Source: an uncultured Bacillota bacterium (lineage in GTDB: Bacteria; Bacillota; DTU025; MWDF01). From it: a stretch of DNA of 64,000 nucleotides. Numbering within the stretch: the stretch's first letter is position 1; each line of letters opens with the position of its first letter. A program made the translations under genes and the position numbers. The notes below the pieces were generated by a model, which was not told where the DNA came from, searched no databases, and worked only from the letters and a program-made list of their open reading frames with translations. The DNA is taken from contig CAWGMK010000013.1 of assembly GCA_963823655.1 (NCBI GenBank), positions 320,001 to 384,000 of the forward strand. The letters run 5' to 3'. Shown in pieces: positions 4,603 to 43,149 of the stretch.

Positions 4603-4619
4603 TTCTCGCCCCTTCCTTC

Positions 4620-14888: not shown

Positions 14889-15313
14889 CAGTTGACGCCT
14901 CCAGGCTCCCCTGCCGGTGTCCTTTCGACTGCAAGCGCAAGGTGGACCCCTCCGCCCAGCCTCACAGCATCTACTATGGCTATTAGCTGCTCATACGTTA
15001 CGGATTTATCCGCTTTGATGGCGAAAAGCTCCTCTGCGTCCCTCTCTAACGCCCCTTTGACCTTATCCGCAATTCCTGTGATGTCGGTTGCCTCTTCGCC
15101 GAAGAAGATGCCCCCTTCGGAATCGATCGAGACCATGACGATATCGGAGGCGAGCTCTTTTGGCGTCGCAGCCCTGGGAAGCTCGAGCGGCATTCCTGTG
15201 GTGTTCGTCCTAAACGAGGTGAAGATCATGAAGAAGAAGATCAGGTAGCACATCATATCCACAAGGGGTATGAGGTCCACCCTGGGCTTCCTCTTTCTCC
15301 TTGCGATATTCAT
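14888..15313 (-). CDS. exbD: ExbD/TolR biopolymer transport protein
   Basis: DLIPLVDMM TM segment with the essential Asp, LELPRA and IKADKSV motifs. Confidence 0.92.
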   Translation of the reverse strand: MNIARRKRKPRVDLIPLVDMMCYLIFFFMIFTSFRTNTTGMPLELPRAATPKELASDIVMVSIDSEGGIFFGEEATDITGIADKVKGALERDAEELFAIKADKSVTYEQLIAIVDAVRLGGGVHLALAVERTPAGEPGGVN

Positions 15314-15930
15314 CAGGATTCCCTCCCGCCGTCTTGTATGATGTCCACGATCTCGTGTTCTGAGTTGATCATCATTGCGACATGCCTGTCAATCTGGGCC
15401 GTCAGGAAGCTGTGCCCCAAAACGGTGGGGGCTGCCACTATAAGGCCGGCAGCGGTGGTGATGAGCGCTTCCGCTATTCCGCCTGCCAGCTGTGATGGCG
15501 CCGTTATGCCTCCTAGGGCATTCAGCACGTTGAAGCTTCTGATCATGCCGGTTACAGTGCCCAGCAGCCCCAGTAGAGGGGCGATGGTCGCCGTGGTCTC
15601 AAGCACGAGCATGTTCTTCTCCATGTTGTAGACTTCGTTCTGCGCGGTCCTTTCGAGGATCTCCTTCAGCGCGTCCTTATCGACGTCGTGCGCCTGCAGC
15701 GCCACCCTTGCCATGGCGGCGACCGGGCCTCTGAAGCTTCGAAGCATAGTCAGAGCCTCGAGGCTTCCTCCTTTGAGGTATGAGTTGCGCAAAGTCTTCA
15801 GGACTTTCTCCGGATCGCTGGGCAATATGCCAAGCTGTATTACTTTGATGATAATCACTGCCAGTGAGAATACGGAGCTGAGTAGTATCGGGTACATAAC
15901 CCAGCCGCCCATGCGAAATAGCTCAACCAT
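15313..15930 (-). CDS. exbB: ExbB/TolQ/MotA proton channel protein
   Basis: APLLGLLGTVTGMI and GIAEALITTAAGL motifs. Confidence 0.92.
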   Translation of the reverse strand: MVELFRMGGWVMYPILLSSVFSLAVIIIKVIQLGILPSDPEKVLKTLRNSYLKGGSLEALTMLRSFRGPVAAMARVALQAHDVDKDALKEILERTAQNEVYNMEKNMLVLETTATIAPLLGLLGTVTGMIRSFNVLNALGGITAPSQLAGGIAEALITTAAGLIVAAPTVLGHSFLTAQIDRHVAMMINSEHEIVDIIQDGGRES

Positions 15931-19950: not shown

Positions 19951-21836
19951 TCGAAATAGGCCCTCCTTGCAGGAGCTTTCGTGCCATTGCCGCTATGCCT
20001 TCGGCATCTAGCCCTAATTTTTGAAGGACATCCTGCCTTTTGCCGTGTCCGATTGGCTCCTCCGGCATGCCCATCGGGATGATGGTTGCAGAATTGGCGC
20101 CATCTTTCTCGAGCGTCACTGCCGAGAACAGGCCGCCCCTGGAAACGCCCTCCTCAACGGTCAAAACGATTCTGTGAGTCCTAAGCACCTTCGTGACAAC
20201 GCCGCTATCCAGCGGTTTTACGGACCGCACATTGATTACCGTCGGTTCTACGCCATCGCCCTTTAGAAGCAGAGCCGCTTTCATTGCCTCCTTGGCCATG
20301 CTGCCGGCAGCGATTATCGCGATGCCCTTTCCCTGTTGCATAATCTCGGCTTTTCCGGGCCTGAAACGGTTCGGCGGCAGAAGCTGCGACCGAGGCAATT
20401 GCTTCGGCAGCGGCCTTGGGATATCTGATCAGGACAGGCCCCTTCGCCTCTTCTATTGCCCAATGCATCATATCGGCAAGCTCTGTGCCGTCCTTGGGAG
20501 CTAGCACTGTAAAGCCCGGCAGCGCGCAGGCAAGCGACATGTCATATGCGCCCTGGTGCGTCGCCCCGTCCTCGCCGACTACGCCCGCCCTGTCGATGCA
20601 GAAAACCACATGAAGCCCCTGCAAAGCGACGTCGTGTACCATCTGGTCATATGCCCTTTGCAGGAATGTCGAGTAAAGGGCCACTACCGGCACCGCACCC
20701 ATTACCGCAAGGCCGGACGCGAATGTGACGGCATGCTGCTCGGCTATGCCCACATCGAAGTATCTGCCCGGGAACCTGGCCGCAAAGCCCTTCAGCCCTG
20801 TTCCCGACTGCATAGCGGCGGTTATGGCCACTATCCTCATATCCTTTGAGGCAAGCTCCTCGATCTTCTTTGCGAAGACGTCTGTGAAGCTCGTCGCCCC
20901 GTTGCCCAGCTTGATTCCCGTGGCAGGGTCGAACGGGCCCGTGCCGTGGTAGCTATCTGGATCCGCTTCCGCAAATGCGTAGCCCTTGCCCTTCTTCGTA
21001 ACGGCGTGTATGAGCACCGGGCCTCCCAGCTTTTTCGCGTCGCTTATGGCATTTCTCATAAGCTTGATGTTGTGCCCGTCAAGAGGCCCTATGTAGGTGA
21101 AACCCATGTCCTCGAACAGCATCTTGGGAAGAAGCAGGCCCTTCAAAGACCTCTTGATTAGATGCCCGGCCTGCCTGAGGGCGTCGCCTGCGACTGGAAC
21201 GCTGGACAGCATCTGCTTAAGCCCGCTTTCGAACTTGCGCCTTCCCGGGGAGAAGCGCACCCTGCTCAGAAACTCCGAGATGCTTCCCGTGTTATTGGAT
21301 ATCGCCATCTCATTGTCGTTCAGGATGACGATCAAGTCCTCCTTCAGGGTGCCGGCATTGTTCATCGCTTCATAGGCCATGCCCCCGGTAAGAGCGCCAT
21401 CACCGATTACGGCTGCCACGCTGTACTTGGCACCGGAGATCCTCCTTGCGACGGCAAGCCCCAGCGCTGCGGACAGCGAAGTCGACGCATGCCCGGTCCC
21501 GAAGCAGTCGGCGTTGCACTCTTTAAGCGTGGGAAAGCCCGAAGGCCCACCTTCGCATCTAATATTCTTAAGCTGCTCTTTGCGCCCGGTGAACATCTTA
21601 AAAGCATAGGACTGATGCCCGACATCCCAGACTATCCTGTCCGAATCCGGGTCCAGCTCGGAAAGAAGCGCCAGAGTGATCTCGACGGTGCCCAGGTTGG
21701 AGGCAAGGTGCCCGCCGCTTCCGGCAACGCATGAGATTATATAGGCTCTTACCTCCTCGGCAAGGGCTTTCTGCTCATTATTATCAAGTGCGGCGATTTC
21801 CTTGTGCCCGCTTACGCGATCCAGAAGGCCGCCCAT
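19937..21836 (-). CDS. dxs: 1-deoxy-D-xylulose-5-phosphate synthase (frameshift near 20400)
   Basis: GGHLASNLG, WDVGHQ, GDGALTGG, IAEQHAV and DGATHQG motifs; C-terminal domain in ORF 19937..20398. Confidence 0.95.
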
Positions 21837-21837
21837 T

Positions 21838-22392
21838 TCAACGCCTCCCGCTTTCACCCTTTTTCCTGAGGAAGGACGGTACTAAGCCCTTTGCGTAGGC
21901 GATTAGCTTGCCTGCGAGCAATATCACCGGCTCCGCCTCGCTCATGGCGAAGCTCTTGGAGATGTACTTTAAAGTCACCGTAGTCGTTGTGACGACTGCC
22001 ACAGTGATTGCAAACATCAAAGTCACGTTCAAATCGAAGAAATCGGCAAGCGCAGATGCTGAAGCTCCAGCTAGCGCGCCGCTTAGAGTGCCGCACACAT
22101 CCCCGACTATATCATTGCAGAAGTTGGCAACCTGGGGGGCGTTTCTAACTAGCCTGAGAGCCTCGGCGCCGCCTTTGATCTTCCTCGACGCGACTGCATT
22201 GATCGGAGGCTCGGTCGCCGCGGCGACGGCTGTGCCCACTATGTCGAAAGCAACCCCGGTCAGCACGACCAGAAGGAGGAATATCAAGGAAAGAGGCAGC
22301 GAGATGTCCTTTGCGGATCCCGCACCCATGTTAAGCAGAAAAGCGATTATTAGCACGCCCAGGGCGATTCTAACAGCAGTCCTCGTCTTCAA
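21838..22392 (-). CDS. oapA: OLE-associated membrane protein OapA (DUF21-like)
   Basis: Four TM segments, FDIVGTAV and NFCNDIVGDVCGTLSG motifs; lies between OLE RNA and dxs; TTG start after a GGGAAGG RBS. Confidence 0.88.
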   Translation of the reverse strand: MKTRTAVRIALGVLIIAFLLNMGAGSAKDISLPLSLIFLLLVVLTGVAFDIVGTAVAAATEPPINAVASRKIKGGAEALRLVRNAPQVANFCNDIVGDVCGTLSGALAGASASALADFFDLNVTLMFAITVAVVTTTTVTLKYISKSFAMSEAEPVILLAGKLIAYAKGLVPSFLRKKGESGRR

Positions 22393-22438
22393 AGCGCACC
22401 TTCCCTTTAGAATGGGGCCCGGCCGAAGCCGGGCCAAA

Positions 22439-23040: not shown

Positions 23041-23478
23041 TCACAATTTGAGCAGTAATGCAGACACGATGACGCCAAGGGCGAGCCCCGCCACTATTTC
23101 CACCATCTCATGTCCCTGGTAATCGCCTATATCCGGATATTTGGCCTTGAACTGCTCCTCGCCGAACAGCTTGATGGCGATCTCCCTTAGCAGCCTGCTC
23201 TGCCTGTGGAATTCCGCCCTCATGCCCATCGCGTCGTAGCTCACGATGACCGCCAACGCAAGTGCCGTGATAAATTCGATGCTCGATGTGCCGTGGATTA
23301 TGCCGGCGCAGAAAGTAAGCGACGATACAAGTGCGGCGTGGGCCGACGGCATGCCGCCGGTCTTCATGGCCCTTCCAGCGAAGAAGTCGCCGTTTTTGAT
23401 TTTCGATATCAGGAACTTCAGAAACTGCGCGGCAAGCCATGATAGAAGTACTGCGAAGAAAGCCCTGTTGCCTGCCAT
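23041..23478 (-). CDS. Divergent PAP2 (DUF212) family protein
   Basis: AQFLK, TGGMPSAH, YDAMGMR and GH motifs; has its own RBS and ATG. Confidence 0.88.
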   Translation of the reverse strand: MAGNRAFFAVLLSWLAAQFLKFLISKIKNGDFFAGRAMKTGGMPSAHAALVSSLTFCAGIIHGTSSIEFITALALAVIVSYDAMGMRAEFHRQSRLLREIAIKLFGEEQFKAKYPDIGDYQGHEMVEIVAGLALGVIVSALLLKL

Positions 23479-23489
23479 GCCGATACCCC

Positions 23490-24369
23490 CTAATCCTGTA
23501 GTAAGCCTACGGCGGCCATAATAGCGTCTTTCCTGCCGGGCATCCGTGAAATTATCGATTCTGGAGCTGTCCAGCAGCGCGGATAGCCTCTGCTTCGCCC
23601 CTTCGAGGCCGTAAGCGGCAACGTAAGTGAATTTTCCCTGTAAGAGGTCCTTGCCTGCCGTCTTGCCCATCTCCTCTGAGGTAGACGTCGCATCAAGGAT
23701 GTCGTCCCTGACCTGGAAAGCCATGCCTATTGAGCTTCCCAAAGCTGTAGCATCCGACACATCGGCGCCAGAAATCAAGGCGCCTGCATGGCAGCAATAC
23801 CTTATTAGGGCCCCCGTCTTCATATTGTGCATTGTCATAAGCTCATCTTCGGTTTCGGCTGCGCACTCCAGGTCCAATGCCTGACCGCCGGCCATGCCCG
23901 AAAGGCCGATGGCCTCAGCCAACCCCGCCGCAAGCTCCAAAGCCAGCGCCGCCCCCGCCGTTTGGGCGTATGATTTTGAACAAAGCACCTCGAAAGCCCT
24001 GCTTTGAAGGGCATCTCCCGCAAGGATCGCGAGCCCCTCCCCGAAGGCCTTGTGATTGGACGGCCTGCCCCTTCTCATGTCGTCGTCATCCATCGCGGGC
24101 AAGTCGTCATGAATCAGCGAATATGTGTGCACCAGCTCGACAGCGCAAGAAGGCACTGCTGCTAAGGCAAGGTCCCCGCCGTAGACGTCGGTCATGGCAT
24201 GGATGAGATAGGGCCTGTACCGCTTTCCTCCCACGCTAACGCTGTAAGACATCGCCTCTGCAAGCCTTAAAGCCGTAGAGCCGCCATTTGATAGCGCATC
24301 ATTCAGGGCCTTTTGGAAAGGGCTTCCCTCACCCAGCCAGGCATCGTACATGGGAAGGGGAAGGCTCAT
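23490..24369 (-). CDS. ispA: Polyprenyl (farnesyl) diphosphate synthase (frameshift near 23555)
   Basis: GGKRYRP, SLIHDDLPAMDDDDMRRG and FQVRDDILD motifs. The probable true end is IISRMPGRKDAIMAAVGLLQD* in another frame. Confidence 0.92.
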
Positions 24370-29105: not shown

Positions 29106-30167
29106 TTAAAGCTCAATCAAATGTTTGGGGGCCTTGTATAGCACTTCGGCCTCCCCAGCTGTGATGATGACCATATCCTCGATCCTCACGCCGCCCCAGC
29201 CCGGCAGATATATCCCAGGTTCCACTGACAGGACCATGCCCGGTACTATGTCTGTATCGTCGGTTACCGAGAAGCGCGGTTCCTCATGAATCTCCAGGCC
29301 GACCCCGTGTCCGGTTCCATGCCCGAAGTACTGCCCATATCCTTTAGATTCTATCACTTTCCTAGACTTACTGTCCACTTCCTTGCCCTTAATCCCGGCC
29401 CTTGCAGCCTTGATGCCCTCCAATTGCGCTTCAAGCACAATGGAGTATATTTCCTTCTGCTTTGCGTCTGCCTTACCTAGACAAACAGTCCTTGTCATAT
29501 CGGAGGTGTAGTAGTCGAAGAAGCCGCCGAAGTCCATGGTTACCAGCTCGCCCTTGTTCATCACCTTGTCCGATGCCCTGCCGTGCGGCAGCGCCCCTCT
29601 TTCGCCAGAGGCGACTATTGTACCGAAGGATGACCTCATGCCGTTTCTTATCATCCATATGTCTATCTCGGATGCCAGCTGGATTTCGGTCATCCCGGGC
29701 TTCAGGGTATCCAGTATGTGGTCGAAGAGCTTGTCGGTCAGCTTGCAGGATTTCCTTAGAGTGTCGAGCTCGGCCGCTTCCTTGACTACTCTGAGGCCCT
29801 CAACTGCACCTTTTACGGCTACCAGCTCGATGCCATCGGCACATGATTCGAACATGGAGAACTCCTCTACGCTCAAATCGGATGCCTCGAAGCCGAGCTT
29901 CTTAACCCCAAGCGCCTTTGCCTGGCCCATTATCTCCTTGTAATATGCGCCGGCCCCGTGCGTGATGACGTCAAAGCCTTTCGCCTGAGCGCCCGCCTGC
30001 TCCGTATACCTGAAGTCAGTAATAAGCTTCAAGCCGTCGGCAGATACCACAAGGGCGCCCGCCGAACCTGTAAAGCCGCTAAGATACATCCTGTTTACTC
30101 CCTTGGTTACCAGCATGCCGTCGATTTTCAGGCCCTTAAGCCTTTTCTGCAGCTTTTTCGATCTCAT
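29106..30167 (-). CDS. Xaa-Pro aminopeptidase (M24 family)
   Basis: YLSGFTGS, SDMTRT, HGTGHGVGLEIHE and EPGIY...GVRIED motifs. Confidence 0.93.
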   Translation of the reverse strand: MRSKKLQKRLKGLKIDGMLVTKGVNRMYLSGFTGSAGALVVSADGLKLITDFRYTEQAGAQAKGFDVITHGAGAYYKEIMGQAKALGVKKLGFEASDLSVEEFSMFESCADGIELVAVKGAVEGLRVVKEAAELDTLRKSCKLTDKLFDHILDTLKPGMTEIQLASEIDIWMIRNGMRSSFGTIVASGERGALPHGRASDKVMNKGELVTMDFGGFFDYYTSDMTRTVCLGKADAKQKEIYSIVLEAQLEGIKAARAGIKGKEVDSKSRKVIESKGYGQYFGHGTGHGVGLEIHEEPRFSVTDDTDIVPGMVLSVEPGIYLPGWGGVRIEDMVIITAGEAEVLYKAPKHLIEL

Positions 30168-30181
30168 AAGTGCCAACCTCC

Positions 30182-30217
30182 AAAAAATAAGTGGCCCTCA
30201 CCTTGATGAGGGCCACT
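30182..30217 (-). terminator. Intrinsic terminator after the secretin gene
   Basis: 11-bp stem AGTGGCCCTCA/TGAGGGCCACT followed by TATTTTTT on the minus strand. Confidence 0.8.
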
Positions 30218-30230
30218 CCGGGTAATCGCT

Positions 30231-33200
30231 CTAGAGCACGGGGCCCTTGATTTCGACTATACCATCCTTGAGTCCTGTTGTCTGCCCCGGCTTGATTATC
30301 CACGCTGTAATCACGATGATGATCTCCTGGTCCTTGGTATCCGTGCCGCGCTTTGTGAACAGCTCCTTGATAAGAGGGATGTCGCCGAGTATCGGCACCT
30401 TGGTTATGGTCTCGATCTCCTCCTGGCTGAACAGGCCGCCGATTATCGCCGATTTGCCGTTCTTGACCGTGACTATAGTCTCAAGCTCCCTGGTCCTTAT
30501 CTGAGGGTAGTTCTGCGGCGTCCAGCCGATGATAGAGCTTATTATCGGCTTCACTTCTGCCGTTATGCTGCCGTCGTAGCTGACCTTAGGCAGTATGGTA
30601 AGCTCGATGCCGGCGTTGATGTACTCAACTGTGTTGACTACCTGTCCTTGATCGACGTTCTGCACAATGACTGGTATCCTGTCGCCGATCAGCATCCTGC
30701 CTGCCTTGCCGTCCACAGTATAGGTGTGCTGCTTGGATATCAGCTTGGCCTTGCCCTCATTGGCGAGAGCGGCAATCTTATTGTCGAAGTCCAGGCTCAC
30801 TGTTGCCAGCTGGGACAGCGTATTGTAGCCGAATACCAGCTTGTTGATCGTCCAATCGATGCCCAACCTCTTGGTAGCGTCACCCGACAGCTCGTAGAGG
30901 CTTGCTTCGAAGAACACCTGGGCGAGTTCCTGGTCCAGCTGATCGATGATTTCGACCAATTGAGCCTGCTCGCTGGCCTTGGCCGTGACGATTAGCGAGG
31001 AGGTCCTGGTATCGATCGAGACCTTGCCTGTGGTCACTTCGCCCAGTGCCGCCTTGAGGTCCGCGGGCTCGGCGTGGTTGAGCTTGTATACTCTTGTGAC
31101 CGATGCGTCTGCGTCCACCGATACCTGCGTTACGCTCTTTACATCAAGGGTGGCAATCACTTCTGCCGCCAGCTTCTGAATCTCGGGAACGGCCTTGATG
31201 ATAAGAGTTCCGCTCCTGTCGTCAGGCAACATCGAGCTTGCGGGAAGCAGTATGGTAAGCGCTGAGCTTATCTCAGTCGGAGAGGCATTGTTAAGCTTGT
31301 AGGTCTTGTATTCGGCAGAGCTCCGCCGAGACGTCCTCGGGCGACTTGATGTCGATGTCCAGCTTGGATATTACCTCTTCGATGAGTGCCAGCTCGCTTT
31401 CGGTGCCGTACACTATCATGCTGTTCGTTCTCTCAGCCACCTGAATTTTGGCAGAGGACGCTACCAGCTTCACCGGCGCTTCCATATCTTTTGCGCTGGC
31501 GTACTTGAGCTGGAAGAAGCCCAACCTGACAGGATCGCTAAGTAGAACTGCCGCTTGAGCGACCGGAACGTCCAAGGCCGAGATTATGGTCATAGCCTGG
31601 GATTTTAGCTCCGGTGTGACTATCAGCATAACCTTATTGGTGCGCTCGTTGATGGAGATCTTCGAAGCGGGAAGCAGTACTGACAGCGAGGCCCTTACAT
31701 CGGCAGCACTGGCGTTTGTAAGCTGTACGACTTCAAGGGTCTCTCTCACAGCCGCTGCCACGGCCCCTCTTTCAATAGGAGCTACATCAAGCTTGGCTAT
31801 GAGGCTTTCAATCATCTTGAGCTCCATGGAAGTCCCATATGCCGTTATGCTTGAAGTCGGGTCGGCCGCCTGGATCTTGGCTTCACCAGCTACCACTTTG
31901 ACGGAAGCTTCGATGTCAGAAGGCTTTACATTATATAGCTTGTAGAAGCCCATCGACACCGTCTCGGTAGTCTGGGCGACTTCTCCGTCGAGCCTTATGT
32001 CCAGCTCGGCGATGATCGCCATTGCCTGTGAGAACTCCTCGTCCGTGACGTTCATTATTATCTTGTTGGTCCTGGCGTCTACGTTGATCTTGGCGCCAGA
32101 TATCACGGCTTCAAGGGCCTTGCCTACTTCTACGGCGGGGGCGTACTTCAGCTGTACTATCTGCAGAGCCTCGACTCCGGTCGCCAAGGCGACTACTGGC
32201 TGCACTTTTGGTGCAACTTCGACGTCCAGGTTGCCGATTATGTCCAGGGCTACTGCCTTGCCTGCAGGAGTCACCATGACGATGACCTTGTTGGTGCGCT
32301 CGTCGATGTTGACGTTGGCGGCGCCCAGCACCCCGTCCAGGACTCTCTTCACGTCCGCTGCGACGGCGTATTTCAGCTGTACCATTTCGAGAGTAGGCTC
32401 GATAGTCGCAACCGCAGTGGTGGCGACGGGCACGTCGAGGGCGCTGATGATGCTCATGGCAAGCTGCTTCTTCGCCGGTGTTACGATCATCAGTACCTTA
32501 TTGCTGCGATCGTCTACGCTTACCTTGCCCTGTCCAAGGGCTGCGTCCAGCGCCGGTTTCACGTCAGCAACTTTAGCGAACTTAAGCTCTACTACCTCAA
32601 GGTTTTCAACCTCGACCGGAGCTACCGCTGTATCTATCCTTACATCCAGTTCATTGATGACGGCCATAGCAAGCAGCTTTTCCTCCGGGGTGACCTTCAA
32701 AAGCAGCTTGTTGGTCCTCTGGTCTATTGATATGCTCGACGGCGCAAGTACTGCGGCAAGTGCCTTTTGTACGTCGGCGGCCTGAGCGTACTTGAGCTGC
32801 ACTACTTCAAGCGAGCTTATGGCTGGCTTGACGGATACTGAAGCCATCTCTATGTCCAGGTTCTGTATGATCTGGGCTGCTAGGGCTCTCTCATCAGGAG
32901 TGCCCAGTATGATTACCTTGTTGGTGCGCTCGTCGATGTTGACCTTGTCTGGGCCTAGAACACCGTCTAATACCTTCTTGGCGTCAGCGGCGTTGGCGTA
33001 TGTTAGGTTCATCACCTCAAGGCTGGGAACCACTGCAATAACGGCCGGCTGGTCCACCTTTACATCGATTGCGCCGATTATCTCCATAGCCATCAGCATC
33101 TCAGCCGGTGTTACCTTAAGCAGGACCTTATTTGTCCTCTCATCAATAGTCACATTCTCGGCGGGAAGCACTGATGCCAATGCCTTCTGTACGTCGGCGG

Positions 33201-34650
33201 CCATTGCGTGCTTGAGCTCAACGACCTCCATGGACACTGCCGGTTGTATTGCTGCAGCGTTCTTCACTGAGAGCGCCTCTTCGTCGAGCTTCTTGAGAGC
33301 CTCAGCAATTAGCGCATGGTCGGCATCTGTGCCGTAGGCTACAAGGCTGTTGTTGCTTTCGATCACCTGCAGCTTGGCTCCGGATGCGACAAGCCTCACG
33401 ACTGCTTCGATATCCTGGGCTTTGGCGTGCACCGGGCTGTAATAGCCGAGCCTTAGGATAGGAGCTGCCACGGACGCAACAGCAGCTACATCTGCGACTT
33501 TGACGTCCAGCTCCTTTATTAGGGCCATTGCCTCGGCGCTTTTTGCGGCGTCGACGAGCATCACTATCTTGTTTGTGCGCTCATCTATCGCGATCTTATT
33601 TGCGGGCAGGACGACGGTCATGGCTTCCGCCACATCCGCGACTTTCGCATATAGAAGAGTCACTACTTCAAGCTTCTCCTGGACAGTAGCCACGGCGGCT
33701 GATTTCGGTGTAGCGGCCTCAATGTTCTTCACAAGGTCGCTTACCCTGGTGTATTCCTCAGGAGTCGCTTTGATGATTAGCGTATTGCTCTTTGCGTCCG
33801 CCTGTATCCTATCGGCGGGGATTATTAGTGAAGCTACAGCCTTTACTTCGGCTGCGGCAGCGTTAGTCAGTTGTATGACGCGGATCTCCACCGGTTGAGT
33901 AGTGACTGATTCAGCTTTCTTTACGATGTCAAGTTTCTCAATGATGCTCCTGGCAGCCTTTACGTCAGTCAGCTTGCCGCCGGCGAGTATCGCATTGAGC
34001 CTTGTATCAACCGCAAGCGACGCCTTCAGCAGCTTGGATACTGCGTCAAATACGCCCTGTGCCTCTGCGTTCGAAAGCTGGATTATATCGATTACTTCCT
34101 CTTCGGAGACGGTCATCTTGGTTACAGGCAAAGGCGCATCTACCTTGGCGAGGAACGCCTTGGCGAGCGCGATATCCGCCTGATTGCCCCTTATGAGCAG
34201 CGTGCCGGACTTGTCGTCTGGCTGGGCCGCTATTCCGGGGATGGCGAATGATAGCTTGGTCGCGGCATCAGTTGCGGAGATGTTCAACAGCTCTACTTTC
34301 TCCACTACTGCCTTGTCCATAAGCTTGCTGACAGTCCCCTTGGGGCCTACCATAATCGTTCCGTTCATATATATGTACTCAAGGTCTGACACGGAGCAGA
34401 TTATATCGAGTGCCTCTTCAACGGGTACGTTTGTCAGCTTGACCGTAATTTTGCCCGATACCGCCGGGCTTACTACTATATTGGATCCGCCTACTTGTGC
34501 GAGGACCCTGAATACTTCAGCTAGCTCCGCAAATTTCAAATCAAGGCTTACCTTGGCGGGCGAGCTCGCTGCGAATGAGCGCACGCCCAGCGTTAGCATC
34601 GCAAGTACCAGGGTTAGCGCAAATATCGCCCTAATCTTACTTGGCTTCAA
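30231..34650 (-). CDS. pilQ: Giant PilQ-like secretin, ~1470 aa, N0 plus 16 N-domain repeats (frameshift near 31315)
   Basis: Signal peptide, N0 (VSLDLKFAEL...VSGKITVKL), repeated LKYAxAxDV...IDERTNK...LD units, secretin domain (IGDRIPV, KVPILGDIPLI). The frames join as ...SAEYKTYKLNNASPTEI. Confidence 0.9.
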
Positions 34651-35231
34651 TTGGACTCACCCCCCAAGACGAATTCCTTCTGGAACCCTTTATATGATAG
34701 TGTAAGTTTGCTTTCATTAATCTTAGTGACTACAATGTCTCCAACTAGTATGTCTCCTGGCCTTGCGCTGTATGTGGTCTGTTCGACTTCAATAATCGCG
34801 TATATCTTGTTGCTAGCCCTGATGATACCCGCATACCTTATGTTGGGCCATTCAGGCTCTGGCGGCAGGGGCTCCGGCATCAGATTATCGAAAGGATCCC
34901 ATCTTCCTATTGTCAGTGCAGATAGCGCTTGATCCTTCCTGTCTCCTGATGTGTCCTCGGCATCCTTGAGGCTGCTGTTGAGAGTATCGCCGATCTTCTG
35001 CTGCAGCTTATATTTGGCCTCGATCAACAGCGAGTCGTCCGAAGCCGGTTTTGCATATGGCAGAATATACCTAACAAAACCGACTGAAAGTGCTGCTAGG
35101 ATAATTATTAGCAGTACGACGATCAGTATTATCTGATTCCTGAGGTTTTTCCGGGCTCTTTCGGCAGGCGTCAGAGGCATCTTGCCGCGAGGCAGCTCCG
35201 GGCGCGGACTTACGCTATTGGGCACTGCCAT
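34647..35231 (-). CDS. PilP-like pilus assembly protein
   Basis: TM helix, GRWDPF motif, beta domain YAGII...AIIE...PGD; sits between pilO and the secretin. Confidence 0.7.
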   Translation of the reverse strand: MAVPNSVSPRPELPRGKMPLTPAERARKNLRNQIILIVVLLIIILAALSVGFVRYILPYAKPASDDSLLIEAKYKLQQKIGDTLNSSLKDAEDTSGDRKDQALSALTIGRWDPFDNLMPEPLPPEPEWPNIRYAGIIRASNKIYAIIEVEQTTYSARPGDILVGDIVVTKINESKLTLSYKGFQKEFVLGGESN

Positions 35232-35823
35232 TCTGAGCACCTCCCTTCGGACGAATGAACAGGCTTAAGTTGCATATCGAGTGAAGCTTGTCAATTTGCT
35301 TTGTAGTACCATCTTCAGCGATCTTCGTTTCGGCCTGTAAGTCGAAGCTGTAGCTATTGACGGCAAGTTTCCTGTTCAGAATCTCTAATGAAATCATAGA
35401 AAGCTTTGATACCAGCATAGCTTCCTGTGATTTCGACATATGTGCCAACATCTAGGAATCTGCCAAGGGGTTTTGCATTATTGAACCTGACTGAACCGAG
35501 CTCAACTCCGGCCCTCTTCGCCATTGACTCAAGATCCCGAATGAAGAATGCTTGTTTCTCCTCGTCGGCGATGAACGTTTCCTCATTTCTGAGTTGCTCC
35601 AAAGCCAGTCTTTAAGGAAGCATCTGCTTCATCAGCCTTATTCAGCTTATTCAAATCGGCTCTAAGCTGCATTTCTGAAGTCTTGAGCTCTTCGCGCGCC
35701 AGTTCGAGCCTTTCTTGCTGAGGCGCAAAAACGTACACATATAACGCCACCAAGCCCGCCAAGACTAGAAAGACCCCTAAGTATCTTAAGTGCTCTGATA
35801 TCTCTGCTACCTAGCTTTGCCAA
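35215..35823 (-). CDS. pilO: PilO-like protein (about three frameshifts)
   Basis: Reconstructed TM GVFLVLAGLVALYVYVFAPQ, coiled coil, FIRDLESMAKRAGVEL and ITGSYAGIKAF. Confidence 0.7.
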
Positions 35824-35828
35824 ACCCC

Positions 35829-36383
35829 TCACCTCCTCCTTTCAAGGGCTCCGGTGATAACGAAGTCCTCATAGGAAGTAGCGGTTTCTCTATCCTCTGT
35901 TGTTGTTACTGAGCTGATCTTTATATCCTTATAGGCATTTGATGATTCAAGCGAGAATACAGATCTGGCTACTGACTGATAGCTGTATGTCACTCCATTA
36001 ATTGTAATTGTTTCCTGAGGGTTGACATTGGCACTGGTGAGCCAGACGTCAGCAGGAACTTTTGCCTTTAACTCTGCCAAAAACATGGCAGGACTCAAGT
36101 GCGGATTCTCTAAAGCAATTACCTCGTCATACAACTTCTTAATTTCCAGAGTCCTTGCTTCCACGTTTGCAACTGCCTGAACATCCTTCTTAATCATTGC
36201 TATGGATGTCTTGACTTCCTCTGTCCTCTCTTGAGTCTTGATTATTGCCAGCCGCCTGTAGGAATAGAGCCCTGAGAGGCAGGCAATGAGCACAACACCT
36301 AGGATTATCAGTGCAAGCGCTATAGGTCCCAGCGATTGCCTTATTTTTGGTCTAGCGGGAAGAAGGTTGATGTTGTTCCTCAT
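35829..36383 (-). CDS. pilN: PilN
   Basis: INLLP motif, TM helix, VPADVWLTS. Confidence 0.9.
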   Translation of the reverse strand: MRNNINLLPARPKIRQSLGPIALALIILGVVLIACLSGLYSYRRLAIIKTQERTEEVKTSIAMIKKDVQAVANVEARTLEIKKLYDEVIALENPHLSPAMFLAELKAKVPADVWLTSANVNPQETITINGVTYSYQSVARSVFSLESSNAYKDIKISSVTTTEDRETATSYEDFVITGALERRR

Positions 36384-37508
36384 TCCTCCACCACCTCCCT
36401 AAGTGCCAGCCCTACAGCCACTGACATTACAGGGGACATCTTTTCTACATCTAGCCCGTCTACCATTGTAGAAGAGACCTTTATAAGTTTATAGGGATTG
36501 CCTAAGCCTACGGGAAGCCCTGTTACATTGCTTAATAGTTCTCCAAATCCCTTAAGTTTAGAGCCCCCTCCTGCAAGTACTATCTCTTTCACAGCCAAGT
36601 TTTCGACTTTGCTTTGTAGTTGAGCGTCATGGTATGTGATGCTTCTCTTGCATTCTAGGCACAGCCCGTGAGCTACATCATAGATACCCTCAAGTAGCGC
36701 TCTCCTCTTTGGGCTTTGCTCCGATATATACTCTTCTTCGGCAGAAACCACTTCAGCTTCGGCAATTTTCAGTGCCTCAGCTTCATCTGCTTCTAATTGC
36801 ATTGTCTTCATGACCACTTCAGTAAAGTGATTACCGCCGATTTGCACAATTCTTGTCATCCTGAGATTTTCTCCATTGCAGATGACAAGATCCGTCGTGC
36901 CGCCCCCGATGTCAATGTATGCAGTGCTGCCGGTCTCATCTGAACCACTTAATCCATAAGCCCTCATCATGCAGAAAGGCTGGATATCTATTGCTATCGG
37001 ATTTAGGCCCGCAAGCTCAAGTGCCGCAGCGAAGCTCTCAACTTTACTTTTGAGCGCCGCAACTAAGCATAACTTCTACGTCCGCAGTTGCATCCTGAAG
37101 GAGCAATGTCGGATCAGGCATGACTACATCAATTACTGCTTCTTCAGCCGGGAATGGCAGATACTTGTCCGCTTCCCACTTGATTGCTTCCTTTAACTCG
37201 TCATACGGCATGTGAGGGAATACGACGGGGCGAACGATTACGTCCTGCCCTGCAATCGCACATGATACATCTCTGCTTCTGAAACCTGCTTCCCGCCACA
37301 TCTTCCTGATTACATCTGCTACTGCTGCTGTATCGATGACCGAACCTTCTCTTACACCTTCAAAAGGAGTTTTCGCAGAAGCAATGCCTACCAATTCGAT
37401 ATCGCCATGCAAATTCGCAACCTCAGCGATTTTTATCGAGGTAGTGCCTATGTCAACACCAATTGCTGTCGAACCTTTTCTAATGAATGGTTTTCGGGTT
37501 GGGCTCAA
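36380..37508 (-). CDS. pilM: PilM (frameshifted)
   Basis: GVDIGTTSIK, YLPFP, IDIGGGTT, LAGGGS and AVGLALR motifs. Confidence 0.9.
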
Positions 37509-37554
37509 GCAGCTCACCTCCGAATTTCTAGGAATTAACTATAACTGATACATT

Positions 37555-37581
37555 ATTCTACCCACATATGCTTTCACCTGC
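37555..37581 (-). promoter_or_regulatory. sigmaH-like promoter upstream of pilM
   Basis: GCAGGT-N17-GAAT, an imperfect match to AGGA-N17/18-GAAT. Confidence 0.35.
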
Positions 37582-38359
37582 TAATGTGGGAAAATTATCG
37601 CACTTATTGATATATTCGAAACAATAATTGCAGCTACTGCAAGGTACGGGCCAAATGGTACAGGTTGTCCTTTGCTCGCTTTGCCCAGCTTAATAAGTAT
37701 AAATGTCCCAATTAGTCCGAGTATAGAGCCTAAAAGCAAAACAATGACCGTTTGATACCATCCCAAGTAGGCGCCTACCGCTGCGATATACTTGATGTCA
37801 CCTCCGCCCATTTTTCCGTTGGAAATTTCGGCAAGTATAAGAAGAAAACCCCCACATGATACTGCACCGAGAATTGCATTCAGGAGTAATTTTACCCCTG
37901 GATCAGCCCAGATATAAAGGCTAAAGGGTTGATGAATGGAATTCCTAAAAGGTGAGGCTAAGATAAAAATAGACATAAGAGGAATCGTTATTATATCGGG
38001 TATCATTTGTGTTCTAAGTCAGTAAGCGCGATTATTAATGATGCCGACATGAAAATATAAAGAAGCGCCATCTCCAAACCCATTCCATATTTGTAATAAG
38101 CGATCAAGGCAAATAGCGCTGAAGCAATCTCAACCAAAGGATACTGGATGCTAATTTTAACCTCGCAGTATCTGCATCTTCCTTTAAGCATCAGCCAGCT
38201 GAAAACTGGTATAAGGTCTCGGGGAGCTAAGACTGTTTTGCACTTCGGACATATGGACCTTTCACCCTTGAGATCCATATCTCCAGGAAGACGGTAAATT
38301 AGAACGTTGTAGAAACTGCCAAGCAGGACTCCCAGAATAACAAGAAAAATATACATCAT
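37581..38359 (-). CDS. pilD: Prepilin peptidase PilD (frameshift near 38005)
   Basis: GSFYNVLIYRLP, CPKC and CRYC, TDLE/IPD, MGGGDIK and PFGPYL motifs. Confidence 0.93.
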
Positions 38360-38501
38360 ATATGAAGGTTTACCCCTCTAATTAATCGCAGAGTAATTCC
38401 CGCTCTGCGTTTATTCCCCCTAACACTCATAAGGATTATCTAAAAACCATAAATCCTAAAATCCATGTATAAATACCAACAATAAAACTACTCCCATTAA
38501 T

Positions 38502-38542
38502 AAAAACACACCTGAGGAAACCTTGGCTTCCTCAGGTGTGTT
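38502..38542 (-). terminator. Intrinsic terminator after the major pilin
   Basis: 15-bp stem AACACACCTGAGGAA/TTCCTCAGGTGTGTT ending in a T-run on the minus strand. Confidence 0.85.
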
Positions 38543-38549
38543 AACAATA

Positions 38550-38896
38550 TTAGTGCACGCTGCAGTCAACTAATCCTGTAGTAGCAGAAATTGATAAAGT
38601 ACCGGTAGTTGAGCAAAGTATAGCTGCATCGAGATACTTTTGACCTGGGACAGCACCGTAGCCGGAGTTGTCGTCCATAAATCGGCAATAGCAGTTGGCC
38701 ACGCACCTTGATCTGCAAAGTAAATGCCCGCAGCAGAGTAAATAGTCCGACGATTTGCGTCGCAGGCAGCTTGTTGAGCTCTCGTTCTGAAGCTTTGATA
38801 AGCCGGTACTGCTATTGCGATTAGAATACCGATAATGATGATTACAATCATAAGTTCCATAATGGTAAAGCCTTTTTGATTCCTAGTCTTTCTCAT
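38550..38896 (-). CDS. pilA: Type IVa major pilin (frameshift near 38660)
   Basis: Class III signal QKG|FTIMELMIV with E5 and P22. The alternative frame restores a Cys-bracketed end KYLDAAILCSTTGTLSISATTGLVDCSVH*. Confidence 0.88.
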
Positions 38897-38934
38897 TTTC
38901 TGCACCTCCATATAAATTGGTATAACGCGAATAA

Positions 38935-40147
38935 TTACACGAAACTCGCCATTGAAAACATAGGCAACATTATCGATGCTACTAGTATTCCGGCAATTCC
39001 GCCTATGAACAGGATCATTATCGGTTCTATCATTGATGTCATTGCTTTTAGCGCTACATCGGTCTCTTCGTCGTAGAAGTCGGCCACCTTCTCTAACATT
39101 GTATCCAAAGCTCCGGTTTCTTCACCTATTGCCACCATATGTCCTAACATAGGCGGGAATATCGTAGACTGTTTCAGAGGTTTTCCTAAGCCTGATCCTT
39201 CTTTAACACCTAATCTTGCAGCTTCAATATCCTTCCTCATTACATAGTTGCCAGCTGTTTTCTCAAGCAACTCAAGTCCTTGAAGCATTGGGACTCCACT
39301 TTGCACCATCATTCCAAATGTTCTTGAGAACATCGCTGTACTACTCTTTCTAATAACTGGTCCAATGATAGGTACTCTGATTATTAGCCTATCAAACCAT
39401 GGCTTTAATGGCTTTGTTATTAGCCATCTAACACTAAAGAATAGAGCTACGAGTCACTATTGCAATAACATACCAATAATTCTGCATAAACTCCGCGGCT
39501 CCGAATACAACTTTCGTAATCGTCGGTAACTCAGTATCGAAGCTATCGAACATGTCTACAAAGGCCGGAAGCACAAAAGTCATTAATATTCCTACTGCAA
39601 TGATTGCCACTCCAACTAGGAAAAAGTGGATATGCCAAAGCCCCTTTACCTTGTTGATATTCTTATTGCTGTTCTCATAATATCTAGCTGTTCTATCAAG
39701 TACTCTATCAAGAGCTCCGGCAGTCTCACCAGCTTCTACCAAATTCGTAAACATGGGTGGGAATATTCCAGGATAGTTCCTAATAGCATTTGAAAACGAT
39801 TCTCCACCTTCTACTCTTTTCCTAACATCATTAATAACTGCAGCCAAATTTTTTCTTTCCACTTGGGCAGCAAGTACATTTAAGGCACTCACTAACGGAA
39901 GGCCTGCTTCAATCATTGTTGCCAACTGTCTGCTAAGAAGCGAAAGCTCTTTAACACTAACTTTCTTCGCCTTTGGACGTTATCAGAGCTGGAAGTGGCT
40001 GTTTTAGTTGCCTCCGCCTGAAGTAATGCTTATCGGGATATTGCCCTGCTGACGAAGTCGATCAACAACAATCTGCCTCGATTCAACATCCATAACGCCT
40101 TCAATGGAATGACCTTTGCTGTCTCTAGCCTTATAGGTGAACTGCAA
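38935..40147 (-). CDS. pilC: PilC/GspF platform protein (multiple frameshifts)
   Basis: QFTYKARD start, ATMIEAGLPL, AGETAGALD, LPTITK, IGEETGALD and IEP motifs. Confidence 0.92.
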
Positions 40148-40195
40148 TTTCTCACCTCCTGTTTGTTGGCAGATTGTCCCCTCAAGTACTTACTA

Positions 40196-40224
40196 ATTCT
40201 TCAAGTTACTCGAAATATCCTTCT
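40196..40224 (-). promoter_or_regulatory. sigmaH-like promoter upstream of pilC-pilA
   Basis: GAAGGATAT-N12-GAAGAAT matches RnAGGAwww-N11/12-RnnGAAT. Confidence 0.55.
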
Positions 40225-40236
40225 TTGTTAACTGTA

Positions 40237-41294
40237 TTAACTGCCAATCATTCTTTTAAGCTCTTCTTGATCAATTGCCCTACCCATAGCCTCTTCCTTA
40301 CTAATTTGTCTATTGAGGAAGAGATCCCTAAGTGAGCTGTCCATCGACTGCATACCATATTTGCCACCAGTTTGAATAACCGAATATATCTGATGAGTCT
40401 TGCCTTCCCTAATAAGGTTTCTGGCGGCAGCTGTCGCCATCATCACTTCCACTGCAACACACCTGCCGCTATTATCCTTATTGGGCATGAGCTGCTGAGA
40501 AAGGACCCCAATAATACTCCGGCAAGCTGTATCCTTATCTGCCCCTGCTGGTTCCCCGGGAACTGGTCGATAATCCTGTCAATTGTCTGGACTGTATCCA
40601 CCGTATGAAGAGTTGCCAGAACCAAATGCCCAGTTTCAGCTGCAGTGACAGCAATCGAAGTAGTTTCTGGATCTCGCATTTCTCCTACGAGTATCACATC
40701 CGGATCCTCACGAAGAGCAGCCCTCAATCCATTTGCAAAGGTCTCTGTATCATTGCCAACCTCTCGCTGGTTGACCATCGCCTTCTTATGCTTATGCAAG
40801 TACTCTATAGGGTCCTCGAGAGTGATGATATGGCACGCTCTAGTGTTATTTATGATATCGATAATTGAGGCCAGAGTAGTCGACTTGCCGCTGCCAGTAG
40901 GGCCAGTGACCAGGAACAAGCCTCTTTGCTTCTCGGCTATGGCATTTACGGAAGCAGGAATACCCAACTCCCTCAATGTCCTGATTTCCGTCGGTATAGT
41001 CCTGAATGCTCCTGCCAATGTCCCTCTTTGGTGGTATATGTTCACCCTGAAGCGGCCGACTCCGGCAATAGAATAAGAAAGGTCGACTTCGCCTTTCGAA
41101 TCTAAGCGCTTCTTCTGTTCCTCATTCAGCAATCCCATGAAAAGCTGCCTGATATCGTTCGGAAGAAGCTTCGGCAAATCGCCAACTGGCATGAGGTCGC
41201 CAACGTTCCTGGCCATAGGCGGAAGGCCTACGGTGAAGTGAACATCCGAGGCACCCATGGAAAACCCCTGTGTCAAGATGTCATCCAGTTCCAT
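40237..41294 (-). CDS. pilT: Retraction ATPase PilT (frameshift near 40500)
   Basis: GPTGSGKSTT, EDPIEY, ALREDPD, AAETGHLV and AARNLIRE motifs. Confidence 0.95.
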
Positions 41295-41320
41295 TTCGCA
41301 CCTCCATGCCTATTTAAATG

Positions 41321-43149
41321 TTACTCGGCAATCATGGACACCCTTAATATCTCCTGCATCGTAGTTATACCCATCGTAGCTTTTATTGCGCCATCCACTA
41401 TCATGGGTTTCATGCCATTTCTCATGGCAACCTCTATGATCTGGTCCGACGTAGCCCTGGCATTGATGAGCTTCCTAATCTCCTCAGTAGTAATCATTAT
41501 CTCGAAAACGCCGGTTCGGCCGGAGTAACCGAGGCCGTTGCAGAACTGGCATCCGACCGGGTTGTACATCTTGACCGGCTCGGCCGGGTCGAATCCGGAT
41601 GACATTCCCAAGCTTCTTGACCCAGTTCCTCCACACTGCAAGGTCCGGAGTGTATTCTTTCCTGCAATGCTTGCACAAGAACGCGAACAAGCCTCTGCGC
41701 AAGGACCCCTAAGATAGAGCTGGACACCAAGAAGGGCTCGACTCCCATGTCGACAAGCCTGATCGGCGCGCCGCACGAATCGTTCGTATGCAATGTAGAA
41801 AGGACCAAATGCCCTGTCAATGCTGCATTTATCGCGATTCCGGCAGTCTCGCCGTCTCTTATCTCGCCGACCATTATGATGTCAGGGTCCTGCCTTAGAA
41901 TTGACCTCAAGCCGTTTGCGAAGTTCAATCCCGCCCTGGCGTTGGTCTGCACCTGGTTGATGCCGTCCAGCCTGTACTCAACAGGGTCTTCTACTGTAAT
42001 GATATTCAATGACGAGTCATTTATCTTGTTTAAACTGGAGTACAGCGTTCTCGTTTTTCCGGATCCTGTAGGGCCCGTAACCAGGATTATCCCGTAAGGC
42101 TTCTCCAACAGGTACCTCCACTGCTCCATGTTATCCTGCAGGAAGCCAAGCTGCTCAAGCTGCGTCTTCGCGCCTTTCTTAACCAAAAGCCTGCAGACGA
42201 CCTTCTCGCCGTAGATCGTAGGCAGCGTCGATACGCGAAGGTCCAGCTCCTCGTTCTCAATGACCAGCTGTATCCTGCCGTCCTGCGGCACACGCTTTTC
42301 AGCGATGTCCATGTTCGACATGACCTTGAACCTGGAAGCTATCGCATACCTCAGGTTTCTGGGCAGCTTCATCTGCTCGTGCAGTATGCCATCCACCCTG
42401 AAGCGCACTATAACAAAGTCCTGCCTCGGTTCCACATGTATGTCGGATGCGCCTTGTTTGTAGGCCTCGGATATGAGGGAGTTTACTATCCTGACAACTG
42501 GTCCCTCATCCCCGGCCACGTAGGAGGCCATATCGGTATCCTCATCCGCTGCTATGGTAGATACGCGCTCGTCGGATATCGACTTTATGATATCCTCAAG
42601 CCCTGATTCAGGATAATACCTGTTCAGGGCCATGCGCACATCCTCCTCCTTGGCGATGTAGGGGATTATGTTCATGCCCGTGATTATCTTTACATCATCG
42701 ATGGCGAAAACATTGATGGGATCCGCCATCGCGAGCTTCAGCTTGTCATTCACTATATCGATGGGGATTACCAGGTGTTTTCTGGCGATAGAACCGGGTA
42801 CAAGATCGAGGACGTCTGTAGGTATGATCTTATCCTTGAACGCGAACACCTCGAGGCCGAGCTGTTCTTTGAGGATTTCGACGATATCATCCTCAGTAAC
42901 CAGGTTTAAGGAGAGCAGGACTTTGCCTATCCTCTCCTTGGTTTTCTTCTGTTCCTCCATGGCGTTTTTAAGCTGATCATCAGTGATGACGCCCGTGGCG
43001 ACAAGAGCTTCACCAAGCCGCATCCTCTTATGGAAACCGGCGTATGCCTGCTTGCCGTTGGATCCGTTTCCGTTTACAGCCGATTTGGTCGCGCTGCCAT
43101 TTGGATCCTGCTCTTTGCCGGTAAACATCTTGCTATCGTTTTCAGGCAC
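41321..43149 (-). CDS. pilB: Assembly ATPase PilB (two frameshifts at 41600-41700)
   Basis: MshEN-like RLGEALV, ASDIHVEP, GPTGSGKT, LRQDPD and Zn-binding CKHC/CQFC motifs. Confidence 0.95.

Follow-up and report, generated by a model that had tools for sequence, protein, structure and literature searches.

What would a bacterium do with an apparent type IV pilus secretin that carries 17 small domains between its signal peptide and its pore? The question is raised by a locus on the minus strand, positions 30231-34650, of the window, by which we mean the whole 64,000-nucleotide stretch of DNA from an uncultured Bacillota bacterium analysed here. An earlier interpretation made from the letters alone (the sequence-only reading) had proposed a giant secretin interrupted by one frameshift and suited to an exceptionally wide periplasm. 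Our analysis leads us to regard it as probable that the locus encodes one PilQ with an N0 domain and 16 further N-domains, which would form a long conduit of 17 rings across a wide periplasm, and that the frameshift is an error of the assembly.

A single secretin gene across a frameshift

The minus strand of the locus holds two open reading frames (ORFs) in different frames: ORF A at 31291-34650 (1119 amino acids, aa; TTG start) and ORF B at 30231-31232 (333 aa). The two are one secretin gene. When they are aligned with orthologues from the same genus, frame A matches until the residue before the shift and frame B resumes at the next orthologue residue. Since both frames are colinear with the orthologues and no gap is left between them, exactly one base is in surplus, at 31317/31318, and codon arithmetic gives a read-through product of 1111 + 361 = 1472 aa. 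The sequence-only reading had expected ~1470 aa across a frameshift near 31315, and both expectations hold. Public sequencing data tell the same story, with '31318 left out' in 4/4 runs and in 6/6 contigs covering that position; it is also the only frame-changing difference at the locus that is common to several runs. The four runs, three DNA libraries and one RNA library compared as contigs, represent related populations 90-99% identical to the window and not reads of the source sample, and the closest of them shared only 0.24 of sampled words. Contigs of the RNA library (run X3) have depth in 29 of the 30 bins of 30000-35300, which is not evidence for transcription. A division into two separate genes, a repeat protein followed by a short secretin, had been named as the outcome that would overturn the giant; it is contradicted by 11 relatives in which a single ORF (1212-1773 aa) runs through the whole secretin, from start to stop and without a break, two more copies being broken by contig ends only.

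Does the surplus base belong to the organism or to its assembly? Seven other genes, mutS, murB, murC, pilB, pilC, pilD and pilM, are each divided over adjacent ORFs, which match complementary sections of a single Pfam profile. In the same-genus relative G001, pilM is whole (380 aa), and so are pilN, the pilO-like gene, a 197-aa gene and a secretin of 1260 aa. This pattern points to many single-base insertion or deletion (indel) errors in the window assembly, roughly one per 5-8 kb. The frameshift in the secretin is most likely one of them, because the base is absent from all contigs that cross the site and because housekeeping genes are split likewise. For the record, mutS, murB and murC lie as two adjacent ORFs each at 1970-4695, 61197-63506 and 20205-22437, and dxs lacks its C-terminal domain.

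Domain architecture of the secretin

The rejoined protein consists of a signal peptide, an N0 domain, 16 Secretin_N domains and a secretin pore domain, without AMIN. In ORF A, Pfam recognizes 14 stretches of Secretin_N (375.1 bits, E 1.1e-114) together with STN (41 bits, cut-off 28.4) and GspD_N0 (27.7 bits, cut-off 27). ORF B adds two Secretin_N stretches (64.3 bits) and the complete Secretin profile PF00263 (positions 1-169 of 169; 129.8 bits against a cut-off of 27.5, and 132.4 bits in the genome-wide search). Neither secretin ORF has a Pfam match to AMIN at E<=0.01. A hidden Markov model (HMM) made from the repeats themselves arrives at the same count, with 14 domains for ORF A and 2 for B once its frame is extended upstream. 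The sequence-only reading was therefore correct in its N0 plus 16 repeats and in seeing no recognizable AMIN domain, and the scores of 375.1 and 64.3 bits settle that the repeats are Secretin_N (PF03958), which it had left to be checked.

The repeats have a period of 210 nucleotides (nt), with 61-72% DNA identity between copies and 36-59% amino-acid identity among the central units, and no 40-mer recurs inside the gene. With copies that have diverged this far in both DNA and protein, the array is old and not an expansion introduced by the assembly.

Individual domains look like those of known secretins. In an AlphaFold2 (AF2) monomer model of N6-N10 there are five beta-alpha-beta-beta-alpha units, the classical secretin N-domain fold, with a local confidence score (pLDDT) of 62-85 per domain and 70.3 on average. 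The best Foldseek matches of this model are GspD (5wq8, 6i1y, 5zdh) and the Deinococcus radiodurans secretin 8co1, at E 7.5e-12 to 7.5e-10; with TM-scores of 0.2-0.25 and a large root-mean-square deviation, these matches are usable for the fold of each domain only. Searches of PDB sequences give PilQ N0 domains (6w6m, 3jc8, 4ar0) as the best matches of N0, align residues 105-326 of ORF A to 8co1 (E 1e-06), and match the pore domain to GspD and PilQ structures alike, the best GspD-type match having E 1.3e-26. The gaps between HMM domain envelopes along the secretin are 2-9 residues long.

The pilus operon and the PilP-like protein

Which machine would this secretin serve? As the sequence-only reading had noted, it stands in the pilQ position, after pilM, pilN, a pilO-like and a pilP-like gene, and it shares an operon with pilB, pilT, pilC, pilD and a pilin. 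On the strength of this gene order we assign it as the PilQ of a type IVa pilus. PilM passes its NCBIfam cut-off (215.3 vs 133 bits), and the pilO-like gene gives a weak GspM-type match (28.7 vs a cut-off of 60). The PilQ model TIGR02515 (cut-off 284.35 bits) is barely exceeded by the intact G001 orthologue at 284.7 bits, the window ORFs scoring 160.6 and 139.5 when taken separately, while the same orthologue stays at 263.3 bits with the GspD model TIGR02517 (cut-off 351.35). No GspC-, GspL- or GspK-type gene was found among the operon ORFs scanned.

Two further observations concern the operon. PilB (41497-43149, minus strand) has an MshEN-type N-terminal domain that binds cyclic di-GMP (NF053729, 64.7 bits vs a cut-off of 38), which suggests that piliation may be under cyclic di-GMP control. 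The operon upstream of the secretin (34000-42000) has a G+C content of 41-49%, against ~57% around it.

The gene directly upstream of the secretin encodes a protein of 197 aa and is present in 11/11 relatives examined. Along its product we find a membrane segment, the GRWDPF motif in invariant form, a linker rich in proline and, at the C-terminal end, a small beta domain; neither Pfam nor NCBIfam gives a match. Complex prediction places its C-terminal domain on N0 with an ipSAE (interaction prediction score from aligned errors) of 0.77, the highest of three controls scoring 0.00; the mark used for this score is reached by 58/80 solved complexes and 2/110 mismatched pairs. Between prediction runs, at least 98% of contacts agree, and the partner pLDDT is 80 or more. 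Since complexes of N0 with PilP and with GspC are already known, the predicted contact shows a likeness to PilP and is not proof of binding. By its position, its conservation and the predicted complex, the protein is PilP-like. A real contact of this kind would place N0 at the inner-membrane platform and leave the 16 N-domains to cover the distance to the outer membrane.

Distribution among relatives and public proteins

Is the long array a peculiarity of a single genome? A profile search of the source genome (2.3 Mb, 13 contigs, 97% complete) finds one secretin only. Among 41 relative genomes, members of the same genus and order have open frames for secretins of 1200-1775 aa; the 14 secretin genes extracted from relatives have 11-20 N-domains by the repeat HMM (10-19 Pfam stretches), and further members of the family among public proteins have 9, 11, 13, 14, 15 and 16. 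By these counts, an array of 9-20 N-domains appears to be the rule in the order and not a one-off.

Beyond the order the picture is different. In a sample of 401 genomes of the phylum, 90 have a secretin, and outside the order none exceeds ~1060 aa among the matches listed; the 14 longest of these have at most 5 Secretin_N stretches or are Tad-type proteins with BON domains. A survey of repeat number across relatives and the phylum, which had been proposed along with the original claim, thus gives 9-20 domains in the order and among public members of the family, and a longest listed secretin of at most ~1060 aa outside it. A protein-wide search covering 1.84 billion representatives shows a small family, with about seven clusters nearer than the next group, and far larger proteins of 2000-5100 aa match as well. 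Two giants of 3927 and 4404 aa, among ten matches scanned, have N0, 36 and 44 Pfam Secretin_N stretches, respectively, and a Secretin domain. The supposed uniqueness of the window protein is not supported: long secretins are usual in its order and are far exceeded by these two. As far as such comparisons go, the protein is typical of the order, unusual for the phylum and among pilus secretins, and exceeded by larger public secretins.

The literature outside subscription journals yielded no description of secretins with 10 or more N-domains and none of the envelope of this lineage. Where PMC6668835 deals with the six systems of the type IV filament superfamily (TFF) that have secretins in diderm Firmicutes, in the extract available it says that the secretins 'lacked distinctive domain architecture'; the window lineage is an exception to that statement.

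Evolution of the repeat number

Where along the protein does the repeat number change? When four species of the genus are compared, each of N1-N5 and of the five final domains has one orthologue in each of the others, at 61-86% identity, and the proteins differ in length only through a central block of A-type units: the window has 6 of them, G001 has 3, G002 has 5 and G004 has 10. B-type units are interspersed at three fixed places (N5, N12 and N14). The G004 secretin (1773 aa; L014:1266-6587) contains an exact tandem duplication of 1092 nt, five units in length and with 100% DNA identity, which may be a very recent event or an assembly artefact; depending on which it is, that species has 20 or 15 N-domains. 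A near-exact duplication of 462 nt (two units) is found at the secretin locus L016 of another relative, G012. These two duplications make it plausible that units are gained by tandem duplication, a process that is probably ongoing.

Probable outer membrane, putative tether and spacer proteins

The source genome has BamA with POTRA domains, Skp, LptF/G, LptC, LptA and LptB in one gene cluster, which makes an outer membrane very probable. LpxC (PF03331) was not found in this 97%-complete genome, although LptF/G, LptC, an LptA-like protein and LptB are present. A SlpA/OmpM-like gene, frameshifted in the source genome (G000:C10, locus L066:16101-19308, plus strand), adjoins the cluster.

This gene encodes an SLH domain, ~560 stalk residues and a beta-rich C-terminal part. 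In relatives a single frame of 1050-1334 aa encodes it, and 403-738 residues separate the SLH domain from the putative barrel. The SLH domain is well supported (40 bits in Pfam vs a cut-off of 20.8), its best PDB matches being the Veillonella-type OmpM structures 8bys/8bym and SlpA 7zgx. The stalk is low in proline and glycine and rich in alanine, glutamate, leucine and lysine, with proline-rich breaks, and it gives weak matches to SMC models; the C-terminal part is beta-rich, and the last residue is phenylalanine in 10/10 complete C-termini. We therefore describe the protein as a SlpA/OmpM-like tether, its putative coiled coil and barrel resting on composition, the weak SMC matches, the terminal phenylalanine and a low-confidence AF2 model. 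By our estimate, 400-560 residues of stalk would span roughly 55-85 nm if helical. This is far longer than the SlpA coiled coil of D. radiodurans, which at ~28 nm sets the distance between outer membrane and wall in a 121-nm periplasm, and for the OmpM proteins of other lineages the same source mentions 'much shorter coiled-coil segments' (PMC9388160, extract). In the sister family, exact repeats offset by 111 nt (37 aa) are found in the tether loci L097, L100 and L102 with their flanks and, in L100, also by 222 and 333 nt. Secretin and tether both seem to grow by duplication of modules, as far as their repeats can tell.

A second candidate spacer is encoded in the window itself, at 9847-12088 of the minus strand, again with a frameshift: a signal peptide, an SLH domain, ~600 coiled-coil-like residues and a C-terminal membrane helix. 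The protein is intact at 649 aa in G001 and was matched in 5/5 relatives searched. It has the same layout as Thermotoga Ompα, to which the Fig. 5 legend of PMC9388160 ascribes the order SLH, coiled coil and transmembrane segment.

A long conduit through a wide envelope?

How could so many N-domains be used? By analogy with Thermus PilQ and GspD, about 13-15 protomers would assemble so that each N-domain forms one ring. The PilP-like protein would fix N0 to the inner-membrane platform, and the outer membrane would contain the pore. At 3.5-4.5 nm per ring, a figure taken from the 350 Å that Thermus PilQ needs for six rings and a pore, 17 rings and the pore would give a conduit of roughly 70-85 nm, an estimate in the same range as the spacers. 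Through this conduit the pilus, which probably also serves DNA uptake, would cross an unusually wide periplasm whose width would be set by the very long SLH-coiled-coil spacers, and units gained and lost in tandem would tune the number of rings in the course of evolution. Support for such a long conduit comes from the predicted contact between PilP-like protein and N0, from the SlpA-like tether stalk and from the Ompα-like spacer; for the wide envelope it is indirect, though moderately strong.

A wider generalization can be drawn up only tentatively, and we think it somewhat more apt to fail than to hold. The organisms would have a Toga- or Deinococcus-like envelope with a periplasm of ~60-100 nm, and a PilQ of 9-20 rings, a tether with a stalk of 400-740 residues and the Ompα-like spacer would keep step with its width. 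All of these would be modular, built of 70-aa N-domains or 37-aa coiled-coil repeats that are gained and lost by tandem duplication, so that the width would be evolvable and the ring count would serve as its genomic read-out.

Several observations weigh against a conduit matched to a wide periplasm. The PilQ of D. radiodurans has only 740 aa (8co1) despite a periplasm of 121 nm (PMC9388160, extract), so that secretin length need not follow envelope width. Across nine genomes, secretin length and tether stalk length give a Spearman coefficient of 0.72 (n=9, p=0.03, relatedness ignored), but the value is fragile: it drops to 0.52 (p=0.15) when the G004 duplication is taken as an artefact and to 0.60 (p=0.12) without G004, and for the number of N-domains against stalk length it is only 0.46. 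Within the genus itself, G002 has 15 rings and G001 has 13, yet the stalk of G002 is the shorter. The TonB-like protein is of ordinary length (265 aa). The structural models are limited as well. The AF2 model of the tether, from a 5-row alignment, has a mean pLDDT of 32.8 and is a rough guide to secondary structure only, which makes the helical length of the stalk an estimate, and the N6-N10 monomer has a predicted TM-score (pTM) of 0.24, with poorly defined linkers and no fixed packing between domains. Finally, a private mutation of this strain is conceivable as the source of the frameshift, since the public runs represent related populations at 90-99% identity.

The correlation between secretin and stalk lengths was rejected as support, as it hinges on the single doubtful point of G004. 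The TonB-like protein belongs to an ExbB-ExbD-TonB-like set at 14091-15930 of the minus strand, and its linker of ~150 residues is rich in proline, glutamate and lysine.

Could genuine N-domains form something other than stacked rings? They might make up a flexible or partly ordered chain that works as an extensible leash from the inner-membrane platform to the pore, offers modules for binding DNA, peptidoglycan or wall polymers, or serves as a stack that shortens and lengthens along with the envelope. The linkers of ~14 residues modelled by AF2 at low confidence leave the geometry between domains unfixed, the linkers of the sister family are longer still (10-30 residues), and ring number varies by up to 7 within the genus while the tether changes less regularly, all of which would suit a chain of this kind, as would the hinge and the conformational changes of the Thermus PilQ N-rings (PMC5745081, extract). 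However, in the window secretin the gaps between domain envelopes are as short as 2-9 residues, N1-N5 and N12-N16 are under clear constraint at 61-86% identity to their counterparts, and all characterized Secretin_N domains in assembled secretins form rings, as PMC5745081 states. We therefore consider a flexible chain unlikely, if worth keeping in mind, and return to the stacked conduit as the preferred explanation.

Another possibility is a true pseudogene in a strain whose pilus operon is decaying, the two ORFs no longer being one protein. At least six genes of the operon are broken (pilB, pilC, pilD, pilM, pilQ and probably pilT), and its G+C content of 41-49% departs from the ~57% around it. 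Yet the essential murB and murC, and also mutS, are broken alike outside the operon, the surplus base is absent from all six contigs of the four runs, and the lesion is a clean one-base insertion in a linker without other damage, which together leave decay very improbable. That the repeat number is itself an artefact, the assembly having stretched a shorter array or collapsed a longer one, deserves hardly any credence: repeat arrays are error-prone in assemblies and the exact 1092-nt duplication at L014 may be such a case, but no 40-mer is repeated in the window gene, its units are only 61-72% identical in DNA, and arrays of 9-16 units occur in independent public assemblies. The single PilQ with its array of 16 N-domains is thus the reading that we carry forward.

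Features of the locus and the window

The features of the secretin gene and of the pilus operon are collected in Table 1.

Table 1. Coordinates in the window of the secretin gene, its domains and the genes of the pilus operon, with the basis of each assignment
Feature	Position	Strand	Basis
Whole PilQ-type secretin gene, 1472 aa with surplus base skipped	30231-34650	-	Pfam, orthologue alignment, public-run contigs
Single surplus base (+1 frameshift) in linker N14/N15	31317-31318	-	Gapless orthologue alignment, public-run contigs, codon arithmetic
Signal peptide, residues 1-28	34567-34650	-	Judged by eye; N-terminus conserved in same-genus orthologues
N0 domain (STN / GspD_N0), residues ~35-110	34321-34548	-	Pfam; PDB matches
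N1-N3, three unique N-domains	33697-34317	-	One-to-one orthologues across genus, 72-86% identity to G001
N4 (A-type unit)	33484-33684	-	Repeat HMM, genus alignment
N5 (B-type unit)	33262-33456	-	Repeat HMM, genus alignment
N6-N11, central block of six A-type units	31978-33243	-	Repeat HMM, genus alignment; AF2 of N6-N10
N12 (B-type unit)	31768-31965	-	Repeat HMM, genus alignment
N13 (A-type unit)	31549-31749	-	Repeat HMM, genus alignment
N14 (B-type unit)	31336-31536	-	Repeat HMM, genus alignment
N15 (second reading frame)	31122-31319	-	Repeat HMM, orthologue alignment
N16	30912-31109	-	Pfam, repeat HMM
Secretin pore domain PF00263	30291-30770	-	Profile 1-169 of 169; ~19 residues after domain
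PilP-like gene, 197 aa	34647-35240	-	Transmembrane segment, GRWDPF motif, proline-rich linker, C-terminal beta domain
Fragments at position of pilO-like gene	35215-35602	-	204 aa and intact in G001
pilN	35829-36383	-	Pfam
pilM, two ORFs	36380-37517	-	PilM_2 profile 1-118 and 174-339; 380 aa intact in G001
Prepilin peptidase pilD, two ORFs	37581-38359	-	Pfam
Pilin with N-terminal methylation motif	38570-38911	-	Profile match
pilC, two T2SSF domains in two ORFs	38935-39925	-	Pfam
pilT, C-terminus in another ORF	40237-41294	-	TIGR01420, 372.2 bits vs cut-off 319.1
pilB with MshEN / cyclic di-GMP-binding N-domain, two ORFs	41321-43149	-	Pfam, NCBIfam

Elsewhere in the window, an ORF of 442 aa (23041-24369, minus strand) encodes both a polyprenyl synthetase domain and a DUF212 (divergent PAP2) domain; either this is a genuine fusion, or an indel error has run two genes together.

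Significance

The characterized secretins compared here have at most six periplasmic rings, the maximum being Thermus PilQ with N0-N5. If the reading is true, a pilus secretin with 17 rings would provide the longest conduit of the PilQ type so far, in a lineage that is known only from metagenomes, for example of digesters, wastewater and sediments. Combined with two very long SLH-coiled-coil spacers, it leads to a measurable prediction, namely a membrane spacing of several tens of nm bridged by about 17 stacked rings. The prediction concerns the envelope of a little-known branch of diderm Bacillota, a group central to the debate on one versus two membranes. The natural series of 9-20 rings in close relatives would also offer a handle on what determines the number of rings and on the guidance of a pilus over such a distance.

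Comparison with known secretins

How does the window secretin compare with secretins of known structure? AMIN domains are typical of proteobacterial PilQ but do not define the family, and Thermus PilQ is not known to have them. The window protein resembles the latter as a predicted secretin for type IV pili and competence without AMIN, with beta-alpha-beta-beta-alpha N-domains and in a diderm member of the Terrabacteria with a SlpA-type tether. It differs in its 17 predicted rings against six and in being about twice as long; in a PDB sequence search with the window secretin there was no detectable Thermus match. The Thermus pil operon presumably has PilW, in contrast to the PilP-like gene of the window operon. 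The available part of PMC5745081 describes the protein of Thermus thermophilus as a 13-mer of 757 aa with rings N0-N5, 350 Å long and among the largest characterized, in agreement with its earlier mention, in the claim we followed up, as unusually long.

The secretin of D. radiodurans (DR_0774; 8co1, 740 aa, 15 chains) can be aligned in its N-domain region and is a top structural match, and its host has a very wide periplasm and a SlpA tether (PMC9388160, extract); it is, however, far shorter than the window secretin. Type II secretion system (T2SS) secretins, GspD, PulD and XcpQ (5wq7, 5wq8, 6i1y, 5zdh, 6hcg, 5wln), provide the best sequence matches of the pore and the best structural matches of the repeats. 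Unlike the window secretin, GspD has three N-domains after N0, in many cases with an S-domain, and the window operon is a pilus operon with PilT.

The proteobacterial PilQ proteins (Neisseria 4av2, Pseudomonas 6ve2, Vibrio 6w6m, Myxococcus 3jc8) are nearest in N0, share the gene order pilMNOPQ and are comparable in the predicted contact between PilP and N0. They have AMIN and only N0 and N1, whereas the window protein has 16 N-domains and no AMIN; Pfam does find AMIN in another secretin match (P0041). The two public giants of 3927 and 4404 aa resemble the window secretin in that Secretin_N is massively amplified in tandem in the stretch from N0 to the pore, although they are only 22-28% identical to it.

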